A stretch of DNA of 20,000 bases from an uncultured virus (IMG/VR IMGVR_UViG_3300017761_005195) (taxonomy: Duplodnaviria; Heunggongvirae; Uroviricota; Caudoviricetes): IMG/VR virus record IMGVR_UViG_3300017761_005195. One strand, written 5' to 3'. How positions within the stretch are numbered: position 1 is the stretch's first letter; every line of letters begins with the position of its first letter. A program made the translations under genes and the position numbers. The notes beneath the pieces are model-generated. The model made no database searches. It had not been told where the DNA came from and worked only from the letters and a program-made list of their open reading frames with translations. Shown here in pieces: positions 1 to 17,162 of this stretch.

Positions 1-2
1 CC

Positions 3-302
3 AGTTTGTCTAAAATCTTTACACATCTTAGCAATTATATCTCTACTTTTGTAAGATTTTTCTATTTCTTCTTTTGATAGAAAATAAACTTCACTATTGA
101 TACAATAGTTAAGAAATAGTGATGATATATGTTGTAAAAATAGAAAAATCTTACTCCTAACATCATAGTCAGAAGTATCCATATTACCAATAAAAGATTT
201 TAGAGAAACTTGAATATGAAATTCTATCTTTTCATCATCAAGTCTCAATGTTTCATCAACTATTTTTTTACTAAATTCGTAATCTTTATATTCTAATTTC
301 AT
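3..302 (-). CDS. Hypothetical protein, partial (MKLEYKDYEFSKK..., runs off the window's left edge); probable cassette ORF
   Basis: Manual translation from ATG at 302, open to the window edge; lies just left of attC-like site 1. Confidence 0.65.
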   Translation of the reverse strand, partial: MKLEYKDYEFSKKIVDETLRLDDEKIEFHIQVSLKSFIGNMDTSDYDVRSKIFLFLQHISSLFLNYCINSEVYFLSKEEIEKSYKSRDIIAKMCKDFRQT

Positions 303-327
303 ATTCAAATGTTTTTAATTTACATAC

Positions 328-381
328 TTATAACAAATGATAAACAACATTAAAACGATTGTTTATCATCGGACGTTATGT
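328..381 (+). repeat. attC-like site 1 (short family A)
   Basis: TAAC-aa-ATGATAAACAA-cattaaaacga-TTGTTTATCAT-cggac-GTTA; near-identical copies at 716 and 2371. Confidence 0.85.
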
Positions 382-392
382 GTAATAATTTT

Positions 393-650
393 TTATCCGC
401 CTAACTCTGAAATTCTATTTTGAATTTTCTTTTTTAAATTAAGAAACCCCTCTTTTTGTTGTTTCTCCATTTCTTCAACAGATAGATTTCTCATTTTCGC
501 TTTCATCTTTTTAATAACATCACTATCTTTACCAATATTATCAATATCCATATCAACATATCTTTCTAATTCTTTAAGATATTCTATATCTGTTGATTTT
601 TCAATATCCTTATTAATGTCAAAGTTATTAAAATTTTCTAAGTATTTCAT
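393..650 (-). CDS. Hypothetical protein, 85 aa, MKYLENFNNF N-terminal motif; cassette ORF
   Basis: ORF track; TTTATATATA motif upstream (670-679). Confidence 0.8.
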   Translation of the reverse strand: MKYLENFNNFDINKDIEKSTDIEYLKELERYVDMDIDNIGKDSDVIKKMKAKMRNLSVEEMEKQQKEGFLNLKKKIQNRISELGG

Positions 651-715
651 AATTTAAGTTTATTTAGTTTATATATAAAAATTCAAAATAGAAATCCCTC
701 CCACAAAATTACTAC

Positions 716-769
716 ACATAACAAATGATAAACAACATTAAAACGATTGTTTATCATCAGACGTTATAT
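716..769 (+). repeat. attC-like site 2 (family A)
   Basis: Same hairpin as site 1; AATTACTACACATAAC mirrors GTTATGTGTAATAATT at 375. Confidence 0.85.
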
Positions 770-775
770 TCAATT

Positions 776-1036
776 TTAATATTCGAATGGTTTATCCATA
801 TGTGTTTTTAATAATTGAACAAACTTTTCATAAATGATATTGAAGTCTTCATCTTCTAACTCCAATGAAGAATTTTCTTCCATTACTTTTGCTAATTGAT
901 ATATCATGTCAATATCATTTATTCCAACACTATTTAGTGCTAAATTTGATGCTAAGATGTTTCTATTACCACAAACAGGATAATTAAGGTTTGTGTAAAA
1001 AGTTTGTTCAATTATTTTTCTTACTTTATCTTTCAT
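776..1036 (-). CDS. Hypothetical protein, 86 aa; cassette ORF
   Basis: ORF track; fills the space between sites 2 and 3. Confidence 0.8.
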   Translation of the reverse strand: MKDKVRKIIEQTFYTNLNYPVCGNRNILASNLALNSVGINDIDMIYQLAKVMEENSSLELEDEDFNIIYEKFVQLLKTHMDKPFEY

Positions 1037-1064
1037 TGTATTTGTATTTGAATATTATAACTAA

Positions 1065-1156
1065 ATATAACAAGGTATATATGAAATACCTTATAAAGTT
1101 TATACTAAATTTAAAGTTTTGTGGTAAGGTACTTCACATATACCCAACCGTTATAA
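1065..1156 (+). repeat. attC-like site 3 (family B)
   Basis: TAAC-aa-GGTATATATGAAATACCTT...AAGGTACTTCACATATACC-caacc-GTTA; related copies at 4206 and 5796. Confidence 0.85.
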
Positions 1157-1166
1157 GTAGTTAAGA

Positions 1167-1252
1167 AAGTGGTGGTTGGACTCGAACCAACGTCCTCCGA
1201 AATTCCTGATTGGTTACAGCAAATCGTACTCTCCCATCTGAGTTACACCACT
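1167..1252 (-). tRNA. tRNA-like gene (possible Tyr-GTA, atypical anticodon arm) forming a cassette by itself
   Basis: Minus strand: acceptor AGTGGTG/CACCACT, D stem ACTC/GAGT, loop CTGTAAC in a bulged stem, T arm GTTGG-TTCGAGT-CCAAC; no encoded CCA. Confidence 0.7.
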
Positions 1253-1263
1253 TTCTTAACTAC

Positions 1264-1385
1264 TTATAACAACAAATATAAAACATTTTATTCGTTTTTC
1301 AAAATAAAGTTTATACTAATTGTCAAGTTTATTCATTTTATTTAAGTTCTGTGTTAAAACGTTTTATATTTGCAATACGTTATAG
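1264..1385 (+). repeat. attC-like site 4
   Basis: TAAC-aa-CAAATATAAAACATTTTA...TAAAACGTTTTATATTTG-caatac-GTTA. Confidence 0.8.
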
Positions 1386-1394
1386 GTAATAAAA

Positions 1395-1559
1395 TTAAAC
1401 CTCATACCTATAAAGTATAGTCAAAAACGAACCACTGTCTAATATACTTATAATAGCATCCGCATCAATGTTCCTGTTTTGCAAACCTTCATCAATACGT
1501 TCAAGTTCGTTTTTCCCACAAGTAAAGTAACCAATTCTTTTTTTAATAGTAATATTCAT
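1395..1559 (-). CDS. Hypothetical protein, 54 aa (MNITIKKRIGYFTCGKNELERIDEG...); cassette ORF below the ORF-track cutoff
   Basis: Manual translation; fills the cassette GTTATAGGTA...TACCTATAAC. Confidence 0.7.
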   Translation of the reverse strand: MNITIKKRIGYFTCGKNELERIDEGLQNRNIDADAIISILDSGSFLTILYRYEV

Positions 1560-1578
1560 AATGTTTAATTTTACATAC

Positions 1579-1672
1579 CTATAACAAAGTGTATAAGAAA
1601 GTTTGCTACAGCAGTTGTGATAATTTGAAAATTAGTTTAAGCAAACCTTCTCATACACCCAATCCGTTATAT
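1579..1672 (+). repeat. attC-like site 5
   Basis: TAAC-aaa-GTGTATAAGAAAGTTTGCT...AGCAAACCTTCTCATACAC-ccaatcc-GTTA. Confidence 0.8.
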
Positions 1673-1676
1673 TCAA

Positions 1677-1877
1677 TTAAATTATTGTTTTGATTTTTAA
1701 TAACTTATCAGATATTCTATAATCCTCGTTTTTATTATGATATTTTATCAATTCATCTATTTCATTATTTGAGACTTCCAAACCTTCTCTTAGTATCTGA
1801 TAAGTTTTCCAAACCATTGAAAAATTATTGTGTGATGATTTAAAACCATCCATTTCTATTTTATCTAATATATCCAT
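1677..1877 (-). CDS. Hypothetical protein, 66 aa; cassette ORF
   Basis: ORF track. Confidence 0.7.
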   Translation of the reverse strand: MDILDKIEMDGFKSSHNNFSMVWKTYQILREGLEVSNNEIDELIKYHNKNEDYRISDKLLKIKTII

Positions 1878-1878
1878 C

Positions 1879-2004
1879 TTAATCTTTAAATTTGAATAAG
1901 TCTTTTAATTTACCTGACCATGTTGTATCTATACAACGCATCAATATAAATATAATAAACCACAATATAATACCACCTAAAATTAAAAGACTTATTTTTA
2001 TCAT
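1879..2004 (-). CDS. Small predicted membrane protein, 41 aa (MIKISLLILGGIILWFIIFILMRC...)
   Basis: Manual translation; hydrophobic N-terminal stretch; abuts ORF 1677-1877 in the same cassette. Confidence 0.55.
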   Translation of the reverse strand: MIKISLLILGGIILWFIIFILMRCIDTTWSGKLKDLFKFKD

Positions 2005-2045
2005 AAACAAGATTTTTATAATTTGTAAAACAATAATTTAACTAA

Positions 2046-2131
2046 ATATAACAACAAATATAAGAAATAAATTTTGATTTATCTAGTTTTTTATAGGAAA
2101 AATTTACTTCTCATATTTGCAAACGTTAGGT
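2046..2131 (+). repeat. attC-like site 6 (family C)
   Basis: TAAC-aa-CAAATATAAGAAATAAAT...ATTTACTTCTCATATTTG-caaac-GTTAG; related copies at 2922, 6555, 8460. Confidence 0.85.
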
Positions 2132-2320
2132 TCAATCATTAATTTGTTTTGAACGTTCTATTACTTTCTTCAATAATTCATCTTTCCATTTAGAAAATAT
2201 TTCAACCGACCTGTCTGTTGTATCAGTTTGGTATAATGATGAGTAATATCCTTTATCAAAGAATTCACCACAAATATTTTCTAATTCACTTTCTGTTAAA
2301 ATTACAAATCCCTTTTCCAT
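2132..2320 (-). CDS. Hypothetical protein (probable start MEKGFVIL...); cassette ORF with its own promoter
   Basis: ORF track 2132-2347; the upstream in-frame start overlaps the TACCTTTG promoter box at 2345-2352, so the ATG at 2320 is preferred. Confidence 0.7.
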   Translation of the reverse strand: MEKGFVILTESELENICGEFFDKGYYSSLYQTDTTDRSVEIFSKWKDELLKKVIERSKQIND

Positions 2321-2370
2321 ATTATTTATTGTTTTTAATTTATACAAAGGTAAAACAAATTAATGACAAA

Positions 2371-2424
2371 ACCTAACAAATGATAAACAACATTAAAACG
2401 ATTGTTTATCATCAGACGTTATGT
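2371..2424 (+). repeat. attC-like site 7 (family A)
   Basis: Identical core to site 2. Confidence 0.85.
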
Positions 2425-2604
2425 TTAATTATTATAATATTTTGACATTTTTTTATCAACATCACTAATTTTTATTCCAATTTTAGTTATCCAATCACTA
2501 AATTTATTACTTGAAATTAATGTAGTAATTAATGATAATATTACTATTATAATTGTAATAAAAATTAAAATAACCCACCACATTATCCCTATTATTTTTT
2601 TCAT
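2425..2604 (-). CDS. Small predicted membrane protein, 59 aa (MKKIIGIMWWVILIF...); cassette ORF
   Basis: ORF track, start moved to the ATG inside the cassette; long hydrophobic segment. Confidence 0.7.
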   Translation of the reverse strand: MKKIIGIMWWVILIFITIIIVILSLITTLISSNKFSDWITKIGIKISDVDKKMSKYYNN

Positions 2605-2629
2605 ATTGTAAAATATTATAATAACTAAA

Positions 2630-2683
2630 ACATAACAACAAATATATTGCATTAAAACGACAATATATTTGCAACCGTTATAT
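2630..2683 (+). repeat. attC-like site 8 (family A loop, different stem)
   Basis: CAAATATATTG-cattaaaacga-CAATATATTTG between TAAC and GTTA. Confidence 0.85.
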
Positions 2684-2689
2684 GAAATA

Positions 2690-2893
2690 TTAATTTTTAG
2701 AGTGCCAGTCCCATTTTGTAATCCAACATACTTCCAAATTCTTCATCAACCAACCTCTCGATATTTTACCATTTTCGTCAAATATACTCTTTATTTTACT
2801 AATTTGATATGAAGAATTTGTAACCCATCCTATCCAAGCTTCATCATAACCTTCAAGTTTAACCTTGTCGCCAATTTTAAGTTCTGTAATCAT
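2690..2893 (-). CDS. Hypothetical protein, 67 aa (LKIGDKV motif, SH3/KOW-like start); cassette ORF
   Basis: ORF track. Confidence 0.75.
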   Translation of the reverse strand: MITELKIGDKVKLEGYDEAWIGWVTNSSYQISKIKSIFDENGKISRGWLMKNLEVCWITKWDWHSKN

Positions 2894-2921
2894 ATTATTT
2901 AGTTTTAAAAATTAATACATC

Positions 2922-3006
2922 ATATAACAACAAATATAAGAAATAAATCTTACTTTGTCTATTTTTTAATGAAAAGATTTACTTCTCATATTTGCAACCG
3001 TTAGAA
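2922..3006 (+). repeat. attC-like site 9 (family C)
   Basis: Near-identical to site 19. Confidence 0.85.
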
Positions 3007-3019
3007 GTAATAAAATAAA

Positions 3020-3277
3020 TTATATATCAAACTTCTCTGATTCAAGTTTTTTAATCTTTCTATCAAGTATTTCATTAAACTCTTCAGTTGAAATATTATA
3101 TCCCTTAATTCTTTCAAACATAGATTTCAAAACTTGAATCGCATAGTCAATCTGACCATTTATTATTTCCTTTTCCATATCATCCATAGATTCATTTATT
3201 TTACTACTTCTAACATCAGATATATTCAAGTTTTCTTCTGACTCGTTAAATCTTTTTATGTGTTTTAAATCTTTCAT
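3020..3277 (-). CDS. Hypothetical protein, 85 aa, MKDLKHIKRFNE N-terminus encoded inside attC-like site 10
   Basis: ORF track; first ~22 codons lie within the 3208-3341 hairpin. Confidence 0.8.
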   Translation of the reverse strand: MKDLKHIKRFNESEENLNISDVRSSKINESMDDMEKEIINGQIDYAIQVLKSMFERIKGYNISTEEFNEILDRKIKKLESEKFDI

Positions 3278-3341
3278 CTTCGTAAGTTATTTTTTAGTAT
3301 ATATTAAAAGAAAACCTAAATATATCTGAGTATCGTTATGT
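3208..3341 (+). repeat. attC-like site 10 (family D, contains promoter motif and gene start)
   Basis: TAAC-a-TCAGATATATT...AATATATCTGA-gtatc-GTTA; ATTTATTTTACTACTTCTAAC mirrors GTTAGAAGTAATAAAATAAAT at 3000. Confidence 0.8.
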
Positions 3342-3410
3342 GTAAGTGTTCCGTTCATCATTCTAATTAACATTTAGGTAGAAAATTTTTAAAGAAAAAC
3401 CCGCCACACA

Positions 3411-3836
3411 TTATAAAAAAGATTGACCATCCCAACCATAAACCACACCGTATTCATCAACCATTAAACCTAATTTTCTTGCTAAATCATCAGCCTTATA
3501 ATCATTTGGTAATCTCCCAAATAATGCTTCATCATCACTTGGAGAATCTAATCTTTGAACTTGCCAATAATACCCATTCAACTTTTTACCATTAAAAGTT
3601 CTCTCACTGTGATATTTCTCGTTTGGTGCTTCTGTATCGGAATCGAATACAGCCCAACCTTGTTTATGAGTATAATCACTATATTCACTTTGAAACCAAT
3701 CTATGAATTTTTTAATTTTATCAAAATCATAAAATATTTTATCATCAAAGTCTTTCAAATTACCATCCTTATCAATATATGATTCATTCAAAAACTCTCG
3801 TATGGTTGTTTTAATAAATTGTTTTAAGTCTTTCAT
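3411..3836 (-). CDS. Hypothetical protein, 141 aa, MKDLKQFIKTTIREFLNE N-terminus; cassette ORF
   Basis: ORF track; TTTATATATA upstream at 3847-3856. Confidence 0.85.
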   Translation of the reverse strand: MKDLKQFIKTTIREFLNESYIDKDGNLKDFDDKIFYDFDKIKKFIDWFQSEYSDYTHKQGWAVFDSDTEAPNEKYHSERTFNGKKLNGYYWQVQRLDSPSDDEALFGRLPNDYKADDLARKLGLMVDEYGVVYGWDGQSFL

Positions 3837-3948
3837 CCTTTTCTTTTATATATAAATATTAAGAATTAAAATACCAACCCTTCTTTTTCTTTTAAAATTT
3901 TTGTTCAGTTCTTCGAATAAACATTTTACCTTAATAATCCACACCTAT

Positions 3949-4002
3949 ACATAACAAAGTGTAAAAAACATTAAAACGATTTTTTACACTCAACCGTTAT
4001 AA
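3949..4002 (+). repeat. attC-like site 11 (family A loop, third stem variant)
   Basis: AGTGTAAAAAA-cattaaaacga-TTTTTTACACT between TAAC and GTTA. Confidence 0.85.
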
Positions 4003-4012
4003 AACATAAAAA

Positions 4013-4207
4013 TTATTGCGGTTCTAACTGAGCAATATGGAATGCAAATATATAACCATTTATTTTTCCATCATACATTGTATCCATACCAGACCATTGT
4101 CTTCCTTCAATAACAATTCCATAATGCTCATTTCGCTTATCTATAACTTTGAACTTTGATAATTTGCCTTTAAGTTTATCCATATAATACATAATTTTTA
4201 CATTCAT
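4013..4207 (-). CDS. Hypothetical protein, 64 aa; cassette ORF
   Basis: ORF track. Confidence 0.7.
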   Translation of the reverse strand: MNVKIMYYMDKLKGKLSKFKVIDKRNEHYGIVIEGRQWSGMDTMYDGKINGYIFAFHIAQLEPQ

Positions 4208-4298
4208 ATAACAAGGTATATGTGAAATACCTCATAAAGTTTCTACTAATTATTTAAGTTTCGTGGTAAGGTACTTCACATATACCCAACCGTTATAA
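4206..4298 (+). repeat. attC-like site 12 (family B)
   Basis: Homologous to sites 3 and 17. Confidence 0.85.
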
Positions 4299-4481
4299 GC
4301 CATTTTGGGAACCCCACTCTTGAAACAACTTTTCCAGTTCTTCACAGTCATATACAGGCTCATCGCTTTCTCCCATAGTTACTGTCCAATTTTCACTTGA
4401 GTGCCTTGTGTATTTGTTTAGTTCGTTTTCATCTGTTTCAACATAAAAAACGATTGACTTTGTTGCGTTTATAATTTTCAT
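4293..4481 (-). CDS. Hypothetical protein, 62 aa; cassette ORF, stop codon within the GTTA box
   Basis: ORF track. Confidence 0.75.
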   Translation of the reverse strand: MKIINATKSIVFYVETDENELNKYTRHSSENWTVTMGESDEPVYDCEELEKLFQEWGSQNGL

Positions 4482-4510
4482 TTTATTTTAAATTTGTGAA
4501 GAAAAACGGC

Positions 4511-4642
4511 TTATAACAGCACATACCCAAAAGAGGGGTTTTAGTGGTTATATGAACATTTTTACTTCGATTAAACATTTGTTTTTATATTAAATTTTGT
4601 GCTTCGTAATCACCTCCTTCGGGTATCTGCAAAATGTTATGA
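4511..4642 (+). repeat. attC-like site 13 (long type)
   Basis: TAAC-a-GCACATACCCAAAAGAGG...CCTCCTTCGGGTATCTGC-aaaat-GTTA. Confidence 0.8.
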
Positions 4643-4858
4643 AACATATTTCCACACACCTATTTCCATAAACAAGTACTTTAGTGATTTGATTCTTCTA
4701 TCCAAGTTATCATAATCAAAAGAATCGTTGCATTTACTTATGTTAATTTTTGCTTGTTTATATTCATCTATCAACTCTTCAATACGTTTCATAACATCAG
4801 ATATATGTAATTTTTTATCTGTGTCATTAACTTCTGTGTTCTTATTTTCTGTATTCAT
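4637..4858 (-). CDS. Hypothetical protein, 73 aa; start lies inside attC-like site 14 (LHISDVM junction motif)
   Basis: ORF track. Confidence 0.75.
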   Translation of the reverse strand: MNTENKNTEVNDTDKKLHISDVMKRIEELIDEYKQAKINISKCNDSFDYDNLDRRIKSLKYLFMEIGVWKYVS

Positions 4859-4918
4859 ATTATTTAATTTTTGTATTTCAATTTAAGAAAAAACTACATA
4901 TATCTGTGTCCGTTATAA
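4789..4918 (+). repeat. attC-like site 14 (family D-related)
   Basis: TAAC-at-CAGATATATGTAATTTTT...AAAAACTACATATATCTG-tgtcc-GTTA. Confidence 0.8.
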
Positions 4919-4933
4919 GTAATAAAAATAAAA

Positions 4934-5116
4934 TTATTGATATAACACATATATACCTTCATAATCACCAAAAATAGTTAATTTTTCATTTGGTATATTG
5001 TAATCAAATTTTAGTCTATTACCTTCTGTGTCCCATACATCAGTTATGTATTCCGCTTTGATGAAAAATAAACTATTATTTCCATCATATTCTTTTCTTA
5101 TTAATCTTGTTTTCAT
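4934..5116 (-). CDS. Hypothetical protein, 60 aa; cassette ORF
   Basis: ORF track. Confidence 0.75.
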   Translation of the reverse strand: MKTRLIRKEYDGNNSLFFIKAEYITDVWDTEGNRLKFDYNIPNEKLTIFGDYEGIYVLYQ

Positions 5117-5140
5117 TTGTATAATTTTATTTTTACATAC

Positions 5141-5250
5141 TTATAACAATGTGTAAAAAACATTTAAACGATTTTTTACACGCCAAAAAGCGGTTTTACA
5201 TTTATTTAAGTTTTTCGGTGGCGTACCTCTCATATACGCAACCGTTAGCA
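5141..5250 (+). repeat. attC-like site 15, apparently chimeric
   Basis: Left part resembles the site 11 hairpin; right part (CTCATATACGCAACCGTTAG) resembles the right arm of a long-type site. Confidence 0.7.
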
Positions 5251-5529
5251 GTAATTGCTAAGAGCCTTGATATTAATAAATCCTATTTCTTGGGCGTGTT
5301 CCATTGAAAAACTAACTGTGTAAACCTTCAACCCTTTTTCAATTGTTACTTTAACCATTGAACTAAAACTATCTATAAATATATTAGTTACATTATGGGT
5401 TATATCTTTACCTTCTTTTACATCGTAAAACCCTACACCCCAAGAAATAACACAACCGCAACTACTGCTAACAATAGGTTTATTCAATGCGGGGTTCCTG
5501 CTCCCAAATAACATTTTTAGTAATTTCAT
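5245..5529 (-). CDS. Hypothetical protein, 94 aa; start inside attC-like site 16 (LNKPIVSSS junction)
   Basis: ORF track. Confidence 0.7.
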   Translation of the reverse strand: MKLLKMLFGSRNPALNKPIVSSSCGCVISWGVGFYDVKEGKDITHNVTNIFIDSFSSMVKVTIEKGLKVYTVSFSMEHAQEIGFINIKALSNYC

Positions 5530-5595
5530 ATTTTCTGCTTTTAAATTAATTTATCTGTTCAATCCCGCACTAAATAAACCTGCAAAACGTTATAA
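5466..5595 (+). repeat. attC-like site 16
   Basis: TAAC-aat-AGGTTTATTCAATGCGGG...CCCGCACTAAATAAACCT-gcaaaac-GTTA; GCAACTACTGCTAAC mirrors GTTAGCAGTAATTGC at 5244. Confidence 0.8.
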
Positions 5596-5784
5596 AACAT
5601 TTTTCAATACACCAAGTTCCTTTGATTTTACTAAAAATTCTGTTTCATCTTCCAAAGAAAGAGTTGAAAACAAATGATGTTCTACTAAATAAGATGGTGC
5701 GTTTGATGTAACCAAATCATTTAATTTAGCTTTATCCCAGAATTTTTCAACTCTTTCTTCTTGTTCTTTTGTTAATTTTTCCAT
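5590..5784 (-). CDS. Hypothetical protein, 64 aa; cassette ORF
   Basis: ORF track. Confidence 0.75.
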   Translation of the reverse strand: MEKLTKEQEERVEKFWDKAKLNDLVTSNAPSYLVEHHLFSTLSLEDETEFLVKSKELGVLKNVL

Positions 5785-5795
5785 ATTAAAACGTT

Positions 5796-5888
5796 TTATA
5801 ACAAGGTATATGTGAAATACCTTATAAAGTTTCTACTAATTTTTAAAGTTTTGTGGTAAGGTACTTCACATATACCCAACCGTTAGTG
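5796..5888 (+). repeat. attC-like site 17 (family B)
   Basis: Homologous to sites 3 and 12. Confidence 0.85.
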
Positions 5889-5902
5889 ATAATAAATTTG
5901 AA

Positions 5903-6214
5903 TTATTTAGTCTTATATAACTTACAATCAAAATTATTTTCAGATAACATATCATTCATAAATCCGATGTGTCTATTTTCATCACCCTCTGGTTCAAATT
6001 TCACAAAAATGGAATAGTTATCTGAAACTAATAGTGACCAATCCATAGGTTTTAATTTAACAGAATCATCATAATTTTGATTGATAAAGTTTATACCATC
6101 CAAAATCTCATCCATATCTGGACCTATCATTTCAAATTTACTATCACTAACATTAGATATATTCAAGTTTTCTTGATGTTCGTTAAATAATTTAACGTGT
6201 TTTAAATTTTTCAT
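5903..6214 (-). CDS. Hypothetical protein, 103 aa, MKNLKHVKLFNE N-terminus encoded inside attC-like site 18
   Basis: ORF track. Confidence 0.8.
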   Translation of the reverse strand: MKNLKHVKLFNEHQENLNISNVSDSKFEMIGPDMDEILDGINFINQNYDDSVKLKPMDWSLLVSDNYSIFVKFEPEGDENRHIGFMNDMLSENNFDCKLYKTK

Positions 6215-6278
6215 CTTTGTTTATTATTTTTTAGTATATATTAAAAGAAAATCTAAATATATCTGAGTATCGTTATAT
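6145..6278 (+). repeat. attC-like site 18 (family D)
   Basis: Homologous to site 10; TTCAAATTTACTATCACTAAC mirrors GTTAGTGATAATAAATTTGAA at 5882. Confidence 0.8.
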
Positions 6279-6291
6279 TCAATACCAAAAA

Positions 6292-6531
6292 TTATTCAAA
6301 TTCTATAATAAAAAAATCATCGAAGTCCATATCACCAGCACCGTAAGTATAATTCACTTTCAGTTTTGTTTCAGATATTATATCATATCCATCATAAGCG
6401 TGATATGTTCCAATCGGTTTTTCTTCATTACTAAATCGTTCAATATACTTACTACGAGCAAAGTCATTTACTACTGCTCTATGATTAGCAACCTTAGCTA
6501 ATACTTCTAATGATTTTTTTATATTTTCCAT
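6292..6531 (-). CDS. Hypothetical protein, 79 aa; cassette ORF
   Basis: ORF track. Confidence 0.8.
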   Translation of the reverse strand: MENIKKSLEVLAKVANHRAVVNDFARSKYIERFSNEEKPIGTYHAYDGYDIISETKLKVNYTYGAGDMDFDDFFIIEFE

Positions 6532-6554
6532 GTGTTAATAATTTTTGATACTAA

Positions 6555-6640
6555 ATATAACAACAAATATAAGAAATAAATCTTAATTTGTCTAATTTTT
6601 TAATGAAAAGATTTACTTCTCATATTTGCAACCGTTAGTG
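6555..6640 (+). repeat. attC-like site 19 (family C)
   Basis: Near-identical to site 9. Confidence 0.85.
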
Positions 6641-6754
6641 GCAATTTGAGCCAAATAAAAAATTATATTCGTTCATATACCATTTTTCGTCTATTGAATG
6701 TTGTATAAATCTAAGTGGATGCGTACCGGCATCATGCCATGTTGCCCAGGTCAT
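6635..6754 (-). CDS. Small hypothetical protein, 39 aa (MTWATWHDAGTHPLRF...)
   Basis: Manual translation; stop in the GTTA box; TATCTTTG promoter box directly upstream (6759-6766). Confidence 0.5.
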   Translation of the reverse strand: MTWATWHDAGTHPLRFIQHSIDEKWYMNEYNFLFGSNCH

Positions 6755-6791
6755 AAAACAAAGATAAGGGAAATAAGTTAGAAAAACAAAT

Positions 6792-6832
6792 AAAAAAAAA
6801 TAGTTAAGAGTATTTCTTAACTATTTTTTTTT
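6792..6832. terminator. Probable bidirectional intrinsic terminator
   Basis: A-tract-TAGTTAAGA-gtatt-TCTTAACTA-T-tract, just downstream of ORF 6855-7349. Confidence 0.7.
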
Positions 6833-6854
6833 ATAAGTTCCTCCTTGGTCATTA

Positions 6855-7349
6855 TTATTCCCAGCTGTCTCGTACTGGTCTTCCTCTGTCTCTCCACTCT
6901 TTATCAGCTTTTACACTCTTACCTGGAATGACTTTACCATTTGACCATTTCTCCCATACATCACCATTGAGCTGATATACCTCTACTCCACTAACGTTAA
7001 CCTTATTCTTAAAATCATTAACTATAGTATCATAATCACCAGGTCCTCTAAACTCTGGTAGGTCAGGGAAAGTATCATGAACGATTCCAAAGATTCCATC
7101 AGGTTGAAATCCTTTACCTCCCATTCCAAGTGGAACTTTAACACCAAATTCTGAGTTTAGTTCTGACTTACTTATCATATCTACATTTTTTTGATTTTCA
7201 CTAGGTATTCTTAACTTATCAAAAATCACCTTCTTACAAGCAAGTTCAAAACTATACTCATTATCACGACTTTCTTGTCCACCAAATTCGTCATAGGCAC
7301 TACCACCCTGAGCCTCATTAACAAACTTATTGAATTTCTTAATAATCAT
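6855..7349 (-). CDS. Hypothetical protein, 164 aa, MIIKKFNKFVNE N-terminus
   Basis: ORF track; TAAATATATA upstream (7369-7378). Confidence 0.85.
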   Translation of the reverse strand: MIIKKFNKFVNEAQGGSAYDEFGGQESRDNEYSFELACKKVIFDKLRIPSENQKNVDMISKSELNSEFGVKVPLGMGGKGFQPDGIFGIVHDTFPDLPEFRGPGDYDTIVNDFKNKVNVSGVEVYQLNGDVWEKWSNGKVIPGKSVKADKEWRDRGRPVRDSWE

Positions 7350-7418
7350 ATATTGTTATATTTTTTTTTATATATTTAATTGAAAAAACAGATTATTTAA
7401 TTCTAATATAGAATGTTT

Positions 7419-7646
7419 TTATGAGTTTTTTATTTCTGATAATTTGCTTATAACATTATCAATTACACCTTTACAAAAATCTCTTTCCAAAGTTAATGTA
7501 AGTGCTTGTTCAGCATCTATTCCAACGCCATTTGACGCTCTTTCAATTATTTGTTCATCTGTAAGCATTCCAAATTCTGCAAGATGCTTCATCAAGTCAT
7601 TTTGCGTTGGAAATAGTTTTCCTAATATGTGTCCACTTTCATTCAT
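7419..7646 (-). CDS. Hypothetical protein, 75 aa
   Basis: ORF track. Confidence 0.7.
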   Translation of the reverse strand: MNESGHILGKLFPTQNDLMKHLAEFGMLTDEQIIERASNGVGIDAEQALTLTLERDFCKGVIDNVISKLSEIKNS

Positions 7647-7733
7647 ATTTGATTTGGTTTTAATTTACTAAATTAAAAATTAGAGGCATCTACTAATAGT
7701 TTATCTAAATAGTCTTTAGTAAAAAACTCTTCA

Positions 7734-7928
7734 TCACTCATAATTACATTTATCACATATTCGCTCTCTAACATCATAAGTTAGATTTTCTTCATTCTCT
7801 TGAATTGTGAGTTCCAACCCACAAACACAGCACATAACATCAGATAAACTCAATTTTTTATCGAGCAATCCAACTCTATTCAAGTGCTGATTTAACCAAT
7901 TGTTTTTGTAATATATTTTCTTTTCCAT
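7734..7928 (-). CDS. Hypothetical protein with CxxC...CxxC (possible zinc ribbon); start inside attC-like site 20
   Basis: ORF track (start moved to MEKKIYY); CCVCG and ICDKC motifs. Confidence 0.65.
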   Translation of the reverse strand: MEKKIYYKNNWLNQHLNRVGLLDKKLSLSDVMCCVCGLELTIQENEENLTYDVRERICDKCNYE

Positions 7929-7961
7929 AATAAAAACTGAGTTTATCTGCAACCGTTATAA
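7832..7961 (+). repeat. attC-like site 20 (family D-related)
   Basis: TAAC-at-CAGATAAACTCAATTTTT...AAAAACTGAGTTTATCTG-caacc-GTTA. Confidence 0.8.
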
Positions 7962-7977
7962 GTAATAAAAACTAAAA

Positions 7978-8199
7978 TTAAACTACCCCAACTTTATATA
8001 TAGTTCTATTACCTAAATTTTCTTTTGAAAAACTTTTAATTACATCATTATTTTTGTGTGAAATAGCTTCCACATCCGAATTGTTTTTAAATTCTTCTAA
8101 CACTTTACTTAATCTGTTAAAATATATTTGATTCCACAAAAATATACTAGTCCATCGTAAGTTTTTCAAAATAAAATCTGTTAATTTAGTTCTTTTCAT
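7978..8199 (-). CDS. Hypothetical protein, 73 aa; two-gene cassette
   Basis: ORF track; cassette ends GTTATAAGTAATAAAAACTAAAA / TTTTAGTTTTTACTACTTATAAC. Confidence 0.7.
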   Translation of the reverse strand: MKRTKLTDFILKNLRWTSIFLWNQIYFNRLSKVLEEFKNNSDVEAISHKNNDVIKSFSKENLGNRTIYKVGVV

Positions 8200-8216
8200 T
8201 TGTTCAATTTTTAAAA

Positions 8217-8432
8217 TTATTTACCATATATACTATTAACAAAAACTCTATTAGCACCTATTGTAAGTGATAGTTGATTTTGTTCTTTCATGAGTGTCTC
8301 AAATTGATTTTCTATTTTTAATCTATCTGAATTACTTTTTAACATATTAACCAATTTTTCCAACTCTATATCTCTTTTTGAAGTTAGAAAATCAATTTGT
8401 TCATTGTAATTTAATTCGAGTTTTTGTTCCAT
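8217..8432 (-). CDS. Hypothetical protein, 71 aa; two-gene cassette
   Basis: ORF track. Confidence 0.7.
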   Translation of the reverse strand: MEQKLELNYNEQIDFLTSKRDIELEKLVNMLKSNSDRLKIENQFETLMKEQNQLSLTIGANRVFVNSIYGK

Positions 8433-8459
8433 TTATATAATTTTTTTAGTTTTTACTAC

Positions 8460-8497
8460 TTATAACAACAAATATAAGAAATAAATCTTACTTTGTT
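8460..8497 (+). repeat. Truncated attC-like site (left half of family C)
   Basis: TAACAACAAATATAAGAAATAAATCTTACTTTGT matches site 9, then the match stops. Confidence 0.75.
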
Positions 8498-8606
8498 TAA
8501 GTTCTGTAATCATATTATTTATTTTTCTAAAACCGCCACTTTTATAAAAAGTCTTTAGTAAAGGTAAGGAAATATTCTATCAATTCCAAATTTATTTTCC
8601 TGTATA

Positions 8607-12497: not shown

Positions 12498-12553
12498 TTT
12501 TAATCAATAGGGGGATTACGAATCCCTAGAACAGGTACTCCTATTGAAGTTTG

Positions 12554-12656
12554 TAGTCAGGACAGGATTCGAACCTGCGGTCATCAGGGTATAGGTACTA
12601 GGTTACCACCCCTCAGACTCTTCCTAGTTAGCGTTAGCCCACTCCGCCACCTGACT
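12554..12656 (-). ncRNA. tRNA-like RNA, AGTCAGG family copy 1 (103 nt, expanded middle)
   Basis: AGTCAGG-TG-GCG..CGC...GCAGG-TTCGAAT-CCTGT-CCTGACT. Confidence 0.7.
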
Positions 12657-12663
12657 ATACCTT

Positions 12664-13150: not shown

Positions 13151-13227
13151 TAGTCAGGACAGGATTCGAACCTGTGGTTTTAGGTACGTTTTAAATGACC
13201 CTGCGTCTACCATTTCGCCACCTGACT
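13151..13227 (-). tRNA. tRNA-like RNA, AGTCAGG family copy 2 (77 nt; possible Leu-TAA loop, imperfect anticodon stem)
   Basis: D arm GGCGAAATGGTAGACGC, loop TTTAAAA, T arm ACAGG-TTCGAAT-CCTGT. Confidence 0.65.
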
Positions 13228-13461: not shown

Positions 13462-13583
13462 TAGTCAGGACAGGATTCGAACCTGTAATCCACCATTGAT
13501 GGTTTCGTACTTACTTTTCATATAGTCGTCACACTATAAAGGACTTACTCATTGCCTTGCGTTTACCATTTCGCCACCTGACT
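13462..13583 (-). ncRNA. tRNA-like RNA, AGTCAGG family copy 3 (122 nt, expanded middle)
   Basis: Same acceptor, D and T arms as copy 2; unrelated middle with hairpins. Confidence 0.7.
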
Positions 13584-14225: not shown

Positions 14226-14759
14226 TTATAAATACCTATACAAATCATCTGGTAGATCCGATTTGGTCATGCCTAAAAGTCTCATAATAGATTTTACAAA
14301 CTTTTTCTTATCTTCATCTGTTCCATCTATAAGTTTTTCTAATTCTATAATCTTATTATATTGTTTTTCTGGATAATCGTCTTTTAGTTTTTTAGTATCA
14401 TCTATTAATTTTTTAGCCTTAGTCTTAAAACTCTCATTAACAATTTGTTCATTAAATCCTTCTTCAAACTCACCTTCCATTCCTGGTTCTTCAAACTCAC
14501 CTTCCATTTCTGGTTCTTCAAACTCACCTTCCATTCCTGGTTCTTCAAACTCACCTTCCATTCCTGGTTCTTCAAACTCACCTTCCATTCCTTCTTCTCC
14601 GAATGTATGATCAAAAGGTTTTTTTGAGACAGTTGGATTATCTTCTTTTTGTTGTTTTGACTTTCTTCTTTCTTCTTCTTGATTCGCTAAGTTTTGTGCA
14701 TTCTTTAATAATACAGATTGCATAGTTTCTAAGAAAGTTTCATAATTTAATATTTTCAC
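14226..14759 (-). CDS. Acidic repeat-containing hypothetical protein, 177 aa, (M)KILNYETFLE N-terminus
   Basis: ORF track; five MEGEFEE repeats. Confidence 0.85.
   Translation of the reverse strand: MKILNYETFLETMQSVLLKNAQNLANQEEERRKSKQQKEDNPTVSKKPFDHTFGEEGMEGEFEEPGMEGEFEEPGMEGEFEEPEMEGEFEEPGMEGEFEEGFNEQIVNESFKTKAKKLIDDTKKLKDDYPEKQYNKIIELEKLIDGTDEDKKKFVKSIMRLLGMTKSDLPDDLYRYL
14461..14592. repeat. 27-bp in-frame tandem repeat, ~5 copies
   Basis: TCTTCAAACTCACCTTCCATTCCTGGT unit, encoding PGMEGEFEE. Confidence 0.95.
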
Positions 14760-16701: not shown

Positions 16702-16798
16702 CAGTCAGGACAGGATTCGAACCTGCGTCTTAGTTACTCCAATTTATATGCAATTCTGCAAAGTGTTTTACTATGTGGTACCATTCCACTACCTAACT
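16702..16798 (-). ncRNA. tRNA-like RNA, AGTCAGG family copy 4 (97 nt)
   Basis: AGTTAGG/CCTGACT acceptor, GTGG/CCAC D stem, same T arm. Confidence 0.7.
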
Positions 16799-17162
16799 AA
16801 TTTATTTCTTCAACTTTTAGTATTTTACAATCTGTAACATTAGAACATTTTAACATTTCTTTTTTCCACTCTTTGAGTTTCTGTAAATTAGATGTTTGTC
16901 TATAACCAATAGTGTAGTGGTCATTTCTTTCATCTAAAATAAGACCTATATAATTTTCCATTTCTATATTTTTAGTAGTCAGGACAGGATTCGAACCTGC
17001 GCCGTTGGATTTACAGATATCATTACCTATCTGGTCAAGAAACTCAATTAATTGTTTAGATTGGTCTAATGATAATTCCAATTCCCAACCATTACAACTA
17101 ATAGTTACACTTCTACCTTCCAATTCTACTTCTTGTGTTATTTTATCTAATACTCCTTTCAT
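16797..17162 (-). CDS. Hypothetical protein, 121 aa, reading through a tRNA-like remnant (may be two fused units)
   Basis: ORF track; GAGSNPVLTT is the translation of the T arm and acceptor repeat. Confidence 0.55.
   Translation of the reverse strand: MKGVLDKITQEVELEGRSVTISCNGWELELSLDQSKQLIEFLDQIGNDICKSNGAGSNPVLTTKNIEMENYIGLILDERNDHYTIGYRQTSNLQKLKEWKKEMLKCSNVTDCKILKVEEIN
16976..17032 (-). pseudogene. Truncated tRNA-like copy 5 embedded in ORF
   Basis: GCAGGTTCGAATCCTGTCCTGACTAC intact, CTGTAAA loop, D arm missing. Confidence 0.55.

Follow-up and report, generated by a model that had tools for sequence, protein, structure and literature searches.

The DNA analyzed here, a 20,000-nt stretch referred to as the window, carries an integron-like array at positions 331 to 7958. 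Nineteen attC-like hairpins were found in this array, all on one strand, and its cargo ORFs are encoded on the minus strand. No recombinase-sized ORF was found in the window, and PHROGs named three of its 28 proteins, weakly. Deposited matches were confined to short stretches of uncultured phages of 462 kb and 642 kb, and all nine sequencing runs that contained at least half of the sampled window words were freshwater metagenomes, two of which may be the source. The window most likely derives from a large freshwater phage.

One unit of the array encodes no protein and contains a tRNA-like sequence bounded by an inverted repeat. Positions 1150 to 1174 and 1246 to 1270 are reverse-complementary at 25 of 25 bases, as the original prediction had it. 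Repeat search, Rfam, and folding place the 5' arm of the repeat at 1246 to 1270 on the minus strand. Its inner bases, 1246 to 1252, form the 5' acceptor strand and pair with 1168 to 1174 in the alignment to Rfam RF00005, so the inner 7 bp are indeed a tRNA acceptor stem. The 3' arm (1150 to 1174, minus strand) includes the 3' acceptor strand at 1168 to 1174, followed by a discriminator U at 1167 with no CCA after it. On the minus strand, the 121 nt enclosed by the repeat fold at -50.7 kcal/mol (z = -7.8), and none of 200 shuffles was equally stable. Folding and site detection identified hairpin sites on both sides. The one at 1068 to 1153 is the attC-like site of a neighboring cassette (764 to 1150), whereas that at 1267 to 1382, 116 nt long and better folded on the minus strand, is the unit's own. 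A cassette with only a tRNA-like gene had been proposed at 1150 to 1270. The repeat and the ORF-less, tRNA-like content are real, but these limits are too narrow, as the own site belongs to the moving unit. The mobile cassette would be 229 bp long (1151 to 1379; RNA-coding content plus own attC-like site), with putative crossovers at 1150/1151 and 1379/1380, its polarity being taken from the related loci L052 and L053, in which the content directly abuts an attI-like site.

A metagenome scan for the unit yielded four loci (L051, L052, L053, and L054). L054 is the window's strain, and the other three have the unit beside different neighbors or at different places, as sought by the original prediction. 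L051 carries the same unit, with a site of the same family as 1068 to 1153 followed by a different gene beyond the unit's 3' side. It lacks 80 nt, 1313 to 1392, and has thereby lost the outer half of the unit's own site. The deletion joint (1312 joined to 1393) recurs in the RNA run X16, and contig ends match it in run X6. L052 and L053 represent a second phage lineage in which the own site is 87 nt long and the unit occupies the first (L052) or second (L053) array place. L053 differs from L052 only in having 659 more nt, and there is an overlap of 4 nt at the core located 3' of the RNA. The unit is thus bounded by core sites and appears to move as content plus its own attC-like site, given its different neighbors and the exact gain or loss of 659 nt at a core. 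Runs X6 and X14 agree with these loci: X6 covers 1066 to 1313 with six changes, and X14 covers 1165 to 1289 with three, including C1251T, a change that would fit the L052 allele. These comparisons support mobility of the unit. L052 and L053 seem to diverge upstream of the own site, but this difference involves just 4 nt at the end of a contig and was rejected. The extra unit of L053 (1764 to 2426) has an apparent hairpin site of ~550 nt, with an entire N6-adenine methyltransferase-like ORF in its loop, and then ~110 nt of content.

In L052 and L053, a motif beyond the unit is shared with seven of eight upstream regions of intact recombinases and is attI-like. It adjoins a recombinase remnant whose first 17 residues are those of the intact L280 recombinase; the gene is truncated after these 17 residues (L052 256 to 345; L053 2479 to 2568). 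The first array place still differs between the two loci beside this cut recombinase, and therefore movement preceded the loss or came in trans. The place of the unit, first or second beside the attI-like site, sets the geometry: the top strand is plus, the cassette spans 1151 to 1379 and has its own site at 1267 to 1382, and its cargo has the opposite orientation to that in ordinary integrons. An attI-like site beside a recombinase gene that points away from the array, as in integrons, was found in related loci including L052 and L053 and is not visible in the window. The recombinases adjoining related arrays are tyrosine recombinases of 266 to 288 aa. PF00589 exceeded its cut-off in eight of 38 records, mostly fragments, and attC-like sites were present in each fetched locus. 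Three recombinases of related phages scored 150 to 155 bits vs 265 for TIGR02249, below the integron-integrase cut-offs, and the L280 enzyme has 34 residues where IntI4 (2A3V) has 82, i.e., ~48 fewer at the IntI-specific insertion. The unit works like an integron cassette, yet under an integrase-based definition of the integron family it falls outside. One family of the sites is present in 32 viral contigs.

The paired ends of the unit are an extreme case of an array-wide property. Among 132 distinct units between sites (window and 37 loci), 131 have ends that pair perfectly over 4 to 10 bp, the first 4 bp being imposed by the design of the detector, and only the tRNA-like unit does so over 25. 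For the 107 units whose ends pair perfectly over 6 bp or more, the two ends of a unit matched at 16.6 of 25 positions, compared with 11.3 of 25 for ends of different units. In the L052 and L053 allele, position 11 of the ends is G-T and 2 nt are bulged out, as in other cassettes. The perfect form of the 25-bp repeat is, on the sequences compared, the state of one strain, and its perfection is incidental, because ends are paired throughout the arrays and the second allele is imperfect. About 15 bp correspond to the general cassette stem and 7 bp to the acceptor stem, so little of the repeat is extra. Position 11 was itself peculiar: 99 of the 107 units have a non-Watson-Crick combination there, which is G-T (folding strand) in 72 and some other mismatch in 27, and eight have a matched pair. 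Pairing resumes at positions 12 to 15, and the mispair is a possible recognition feature of the recombinase.

It had also been suggested that such cassettes form from RNA or single-stranded DNA with ends already paired. Formation from RNA is unsupported because the unit overruns the tRNA body by 17 to 18 nt on either side, has no CCA, and shares its paired ends with protein-coding cassettes. It is plausible that such cassettes arise or recombine via single-stranded DNA whose ends are paired. Across the window and 42 loci, 155 of 167 sites folded better on the cargo (bottom) strand, 10 on the other, and two were ties. The array ORFs and the tRNA-like RNA are on this folding strand, so the integron rule of top-strand cargo read from Pc does not hold here. 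A canonical attC site has a symmetric unpaired spacer and extrahelical bases in its L arm. The two sites that were folded have spacers of 2 vs 5 to 6 nt and no clear extrahelical base.

As a single-stranded circle, the minus strand of the tRNA-like unit is the most stable per base of 17 window units (-0.173 vs -0.07 to -0.125 kcal/mol per nt); its body also has a much higher G+C content, and this alone lowers the folding energy. Such stability would suit a role at the DNA level, in which the unit either serves other integrases as a tRNA-like attachment target or is a selfish element that folds on itself. None of the four loci has an inserted element at the unit, each array holds a single copy, and a promoter match (see below) points into the unit, all of which make a DNA-level role highly improbable.

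The tRNA-like body (1167 to 1252, minus strand) is 86 nt long and has 48% G+C, compared with 26% in window positions 1 to 8500. ARAGORN, one of the checks proposed for it, called tRNA-Tyr(GTA) at 1165 to 1253 on the minus strand, and RF00005 matched 1167 to 1252 with 41.6 bits (gathering cut-off, 29; E = 6e-6). The L052 allele scored 40.8 bits against the same cut-off of 29. The Rfam alignment takes in the acceptor, D, and T arms and leaves 28 nt of the anticodon region unaligned. The D arm (1228 to 1243, minus strand) is of the 4-bp class I type, with a pairing probability of 0.78 to 0.85, and the same 18 nt are found in phage tRNA-Asn and tRNA-Ala genes of ordinary type. The T arm (1175 to 1191, minus strand) has 5 bp and a canonical 7-nt loop. 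Both arms were expected to be canonical and both are present, but the T arm is the minority predicted fold, with a probability of 0.3 against 0.6 for a competing, equally stable pairing. The unit has, in sum, the 7-bp acceptor stem, D arm, and 5-bp T arm with 7-nt loop of a tRNA, the last with this competitor. Alone, the 86-nt body folds no better than its shuffles (z = -0.8).

The body is identical to the L053 allele at 84 of 86 nt, and both changes belong to one compensated pair, acceptor pair 2 (G-C to A-U). The own sites of the two alleles differ in length (116 vs 87 nt) and in sequence. Selection on the RNA would account for a shared body with compensating changes beside diverged own sites, although near identity may reflect recent transfer because only two alleles were found. 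Covariation in the D and T arms, the lack of which was named in advance as counting against a tRNA, is absent for this unit: one of 39 pairs is compensated, between two alleles.

The anticodon region (1198 to 1226, minus strand) is enlarged and irregular, with 29 nt instead of the 17 of a class I tRNA, and all 29 nt are identical in both alleles. The original prediction was of a bulged anticodon arm with a GTA (Tyr) loop. The irregular arm was borne out. The Tyr reading was not, as the GUA hairpin had a pairing probability of 0.00 and the identity elements for Tyr fail. Folds with this hairpin reach -43.6 vs -50.7 kcal/mol, ~7 kcal/mol worse than the long irregular arm, and in the favored fold the GTA triplet (1215 to 1217) is paired within a stem. 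Only three contiguous pairs close the 7-nt GUA loop, which has U33 and A37; the 5-bp anticodon stem with 7-nt loop of a translating tRNA is absent. Bacterial tRNA-Tyr identity is described, in the accessible text of the source, as G1-C72, A73, and a long variable arm (PMC9976931); the unit has A1-U72, U73, no CCA, and no paired variable arm. Its best global match among 371 distinct tRNAs was a class I tRNA-Ala(TGC), in a comparison set that is biased because its loci were partly gathered with patterns from this unit. Relative to Ala or Thr arms, the anticodon region has insertions of 7 nt and 8 nt and a loss of 2 nt. Descent from a tRNA-Tyr is nevertheless conceivable, since viral tRNA-Tyr genes with an identical loop exist.

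These results bear on the possibility that the unit encodes a functional, unusual tRNA-Tyr(GUA) that refills a pool cut by host nucleases. The ARAGORN call and the 7-nt loop with U33 and A37 speak for it, as does the existence of viral tRNA-Tyr genes with an identical loop. A strongly expressed phage tRNA-Tyr rescues infection from retron Eco7, according to the part of the study available (PMC11555353), and an A1-U72 tRNA-Tyr occurs in apicoplasts, according to the text seen (PMC9976931). Against these stand the three loop-closing pairs with their probability of 0.00, the lack of a class II variable stem, U73, the missing CCA, and the closest match being of class I, and we regard a decoding tRNA-Tyr as very unlikely. 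The unit is probably not a tRNA-Tyr, and on the predicted folds its tRNA-shaped RNA probably cannot read codons. It resembles a tRNA, yet it fails the tests for a translating one.

A Bacteroidota-type promoter match lies inside the unit's own site on the minus strand (1273 to 1303), with a -33 box at 1300 to 1303, a 19-nt spacer, and a -7 box at 1273 to 1280. This is a consensus match, in a class with 19 to 21 nt between -33 and -7 boxes. The predicted start is close to 1268, where the repeat arm begins. Such boxes are known for Bacteroides and Flavobacterium, as stated in the accessible part of PMC2483708, and the -7 box is placed at -12 to -5 in that of PMC9723704. From the promoter match alone, we infer a Bacteroidota host. 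Among 167 distinct sites (window and 42 loci), a -7 box is present at the cassette end in 20 and a -33 box as well in two. The two sites with the full match are the own sites of the window unit and of its L052 allele, which are homologous and not independent. The 80-nt deletion variant L051 retains both boxes and the RNA. A sigma-70 scan found five sites vs 7.3 expected, i.e., chance level, and no terminator was found for the tRNA-like unit. Contigs of the RNA library X16, which may contain DNA, cover 1233 to 1312 and not the 3' half.

We considered whether other tRNA-like units exist in such arrays. Architecture scans of 183 loci used patterns requiring a T loop close to the unit end, so a T loop in that position is not evidence. 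At least 15 rows were flagged, among which at least five distinct units were judged to be cassettes (L106, L144 = L195, L163, L177 = L200, and L204); the remaining rows were rejected as ordinary tRNAs or chance, and none of 53 bacterial or archaeal loci with the architecture pattern was a cassette. The five units have a T loop and a closing acceptor-like stem, and L036 has a 108-nt cloverleaf between two sites, with a D arm similar to that of the window unit. L106, the flanking sites of which were judged by eye, scored 56.3 bits as a tRNA in Rfam and comes nearest to a canonical anticodon arm, with a pyrimidine at 37. L163 fell under the Rfam tRNA cut-off, and L144, L177, L204, and the L036 unit had no tRNA match at E up to 2. 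That the other units exceed chance rests on their paired ends and flanking sites. In none is the anticodon arm fully canonical, and the anticodon regions differ wildly between units. By inspection, the own sites of these units mostly lack a promoter match. The L204 unit is second from an intact recombinase. It is homologous to L144, and six of 33 pairs, including acceptor-like and T-stem pairs, are changed on both sides in this low-power comparison of two sequences. Such units are uncommon: in 32 records picked for the site alone, a T-loop cassette was found in none and a cloverleaf in one. ARAGORN at a lowered threshold called 15 tRNAs in 14 units; besides the window unit (two calls), seven were inspected and rejected as coding sequence. 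The recurrence of unrelated cassettes of this kind suggests that phages trade tRNA mimics as bacteria trade genes.

These units could instead be functionless passengers, decayed class I tRNA genes captured for an acceptor stem that gave the needed paired ends and persisting with no selection on the RNA. Paired ends are a property of all cassettes, the acceptor-like stem runs into the terminal stem in most tRNA-like units, anticodon regions vary wildly, the units are rare (0 of 32 and 1 of 32 site-chosen records), and the window unit is known from two alleles. The 84 of 86 identical positions with a compensated change beside a diverged own site argue the other way, as do the compensated changes in the L144/L204 pair and a full promoter match that occurs only at these sites and is retained in the deletion variant. 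We consider a passenger unlikely.

Somewhat less likely again is a cis-acting signal, a promoter and processing cassette with a fold that RNase P or RNase III would cut, giving downstream mRNAs a stable 5' end or punctuating the transcript. The unit is on the cargo-ORF strand, upstream of further cassettes and, in L052 and L053, of the recombinase start, and the window has five intergenic tRNA-like repeats outside the array whose acceptor and T arms are constant and whose middles vary. In the portions of these papers available, ORF-less promoter cassettes are described (PMC8876359) and RNase P is said to cut non-tRNA substrates (PMC11143913). However, the identity of the 29-nt irregular arm in both alleles goes beyond what a cis signal needs, and after RNase P cleavage the downstream RNA would carry the tRNA-like part at its 5' end only in the absence of a subsequent 3' cut.

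On balance, we think that the unit is a genuine cassette in an integron-like array of a phage, with a small, non-decoding, tRNA-shaped RNA as its cargo that acts by shape, a decoy being more likely than an antisense carrier. The 229-bp unit would move as content plus own hairpin site, a step supported by the locus comparison. A short recombinase would fold the minus strand and recombine it at the core by single-strand recombination, and host RNA polymerase would use the promoter in the own site, starting near 1268. The RNA would open with one repeat arm, its ends pairing into a long stem that runs on into the acceptor stem, and trimming by host RNase P or RNase III may follow. Least certain is the action of the product, which may work by shape because the class I acceptor stem and D/T elbow are kept while the anticodon arm is scrambled. 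If the RNA is such a mimic, it is fairly probable that it serves as a decoy or competitor for host tRNA-recognizing proteins, such as tRNA-cleaving defense nucleases, an idea that is plausible; a stable carrier of an antisense loop is somewhat less probable. In the available text of PMC11555353, rescue by a phage tRNA-Tyr is abolished by anticodon or stem changes; the published effect needs an intact anticodon and stems, and therefore no direct precedent was found for a non-decoding decoy.

A broader reading joins these elements, and we offer it as speculative and rather doubtful. Bacteroidota phages would keep a shuffled library of self-promoted tRNA-mimic cassettes, with a constant acceptor stem and elbow and a variable anticodon arm, that neutralize whichever tRNA-targeting defense or tRNA-binding host protein is met. 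Their arrays would also show cassettes built from single-stranded DNA with ~15-bp paired ends and a conserved non-Watson-Crick pair at position 11, for which the acceptor stem of a tRNA gene would be a ready seed.

Several known systems share features with the unit. The original prediction took integron cassettes to carry ORFs almost always, which overstates the case: 6 to 49% of cassettes are non-coding in Vibrio arrays (PMC1382264), and some cassettes known to lack an ORF hold regulatory RNAs or promoters (PMC8876359), as far as the accessible texts of both sources go. Like the window unit, these have no ORF and an own attC-type site and are kept between genomes, whereas here the cargo is tRNA-shaped, on the folding strand, in a phage, and with the promoter inside its own site; the available part of PMC8876359 does not mention tRNA. 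Phage integrons and CALINs (PMC9892861), in the text accessible, include attC-type arrays, one in a Polaribacter phage, and DNA methyltransferase cargo as in L053. They differ from the arrays studied here, which have a short recombinase without the integron-integrase insertion and ends that pair over ~15 bp, and the main text of that source, as available, does not mention tRNA.

Phage tRNAs have reportedly also been linked to the tRNA-cleaving defenses PARIS and OLD and to anticodon-loop mutations. The anti-defense phage tRNAs directed at retron Eco7 PtuAB and PrrC resemble the unit in being phage tRNA-type RNAs with a predicted strong promoter, but in the part of the source seen they translate and need an intact anticodon and stems, whereas the window unit is probably non-decoding and a mobile cassette (PMC11555353). 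Pseudo-tRNAs, such as Bacillus cereus tRNA-Other (PMC3399842) and irregular allo-tRNA-like RNAs (PMC7609411), are likewise untranslating and are proposed, in the accessible sections, to be a structural component of another RNA or to be linked to mobile elements. In contrast to the unit, they are chromosomal or transposon-linked and lack bounding recombination hairpins, and allo-tRNAs have 8/4 or 9/3 stems (PMC7609411, available part) compared with 7/5 here. The C4 antisense RNA of phages P1 and P7, an RNase P substrate in the part seen of PMC11143913, is also a phage small RNA that uses the host tRNA-processing machinery. Unlike it, the window unit had no C4 family match in Rfam and no antisense target in the window or 36 loci. 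The P4 CI and N15 CA RNAs are phage RNAs grouped with C4. Non-coding cassettes, phage attC arrays, and pseudo-tRNAs are thus known, and tRNA-like cassettes appear undescribed in the literature found.

ORF-based annotation treats such cassettes as empty. If the RNAs are made, RNA is among the cargoes of phage cassette arrays, and tRNA mimics that do not decode are an exchangeable tool of counter-defense or regulation. Expression, processing, and recombination are directly testable because the 229-bp unit has its own predicted promoter, two natural alleles, a natural immobilized variant, and relatives beside an intact recombinase. The array-wide end pairing offers a handle on cassette creation and on why insertion may outrun excision. 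Should cassettes arise from end-paired single-stranded DNA, their creation would become testable.

Further searches were run with parts of the unit. An exact 23-mer had no viral match, and a genome collection searched for the unit gave none. The acceptor pattern occurred in seven viral loci, none within an array; the loop pattern in 18 loci, none with a site; and the D-arm pattern in 16 loci, among which only L272 (= L036) had it in an array. A pattern joining the site end and the D arm hit 11 loci, all ordinary tRNAs or chance. A DNA search of 32 array-bearing records gave only two short T-arm matches, and in deposited phages only the hairpin site was matched, in one 462-kb record with no tRNA in the 30 kb surrounding the match. 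The best antisense target of the 32-nt middle in the window and 36 loci had an E value of 4.5. No published description of tRNA or tRNA-like cassettes was found in the literature searched, most subscription journals lying outside it.

Five tRNA-like repeats were observed outside the array, on the minus strand (12545 to 12660, 13151 to 13227, 13462 to 13583, 16702 to 16798, and 16967 to 17032). They lie between genes; their acceptor and T arms are nearly identical and their middles unrelated. Three score 43 to 47 Rfam bits, one scores 22.7, and one lacks its 5' half. A sixth member of this family is present in viral locus L013. tRNA-like genes with irregular anticodon arms and no arrays nearby were seen in unrelated viral contigs (L044, L045, L046, L047, L048, and L050, at 1501 to 1586). 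Small phages (L296 and L297; 37.6 kb and 12.5 kb) also have the same kind of site with a tRNA-like unit. A 75-nt ORF-less hairpin cassette occurs in two phages (L013, ~3360 to 3435; L036, ~476 to 550), in each behind a site with a -7 box.

Within the window array, the sites at 3211 to 3338, 4792 to 4915, 6148 to 6275, and 7835 to 7958 contain a start codon from which reading continues across the core into the following content. In two of these four there is also a repeated A/T motif, together with an N-terminus resembling that of many window ORFs, which may be comparable to the capsid-targeting leaders of T4. An A/T-rich 25-bp hairpin with a 5-nt loop lies at 6785 to 6839, directly after an ORF, and a 27-nt tandem repeat at 14433 to 14630, in six copies, encodes an acidic 9-residue repeat.
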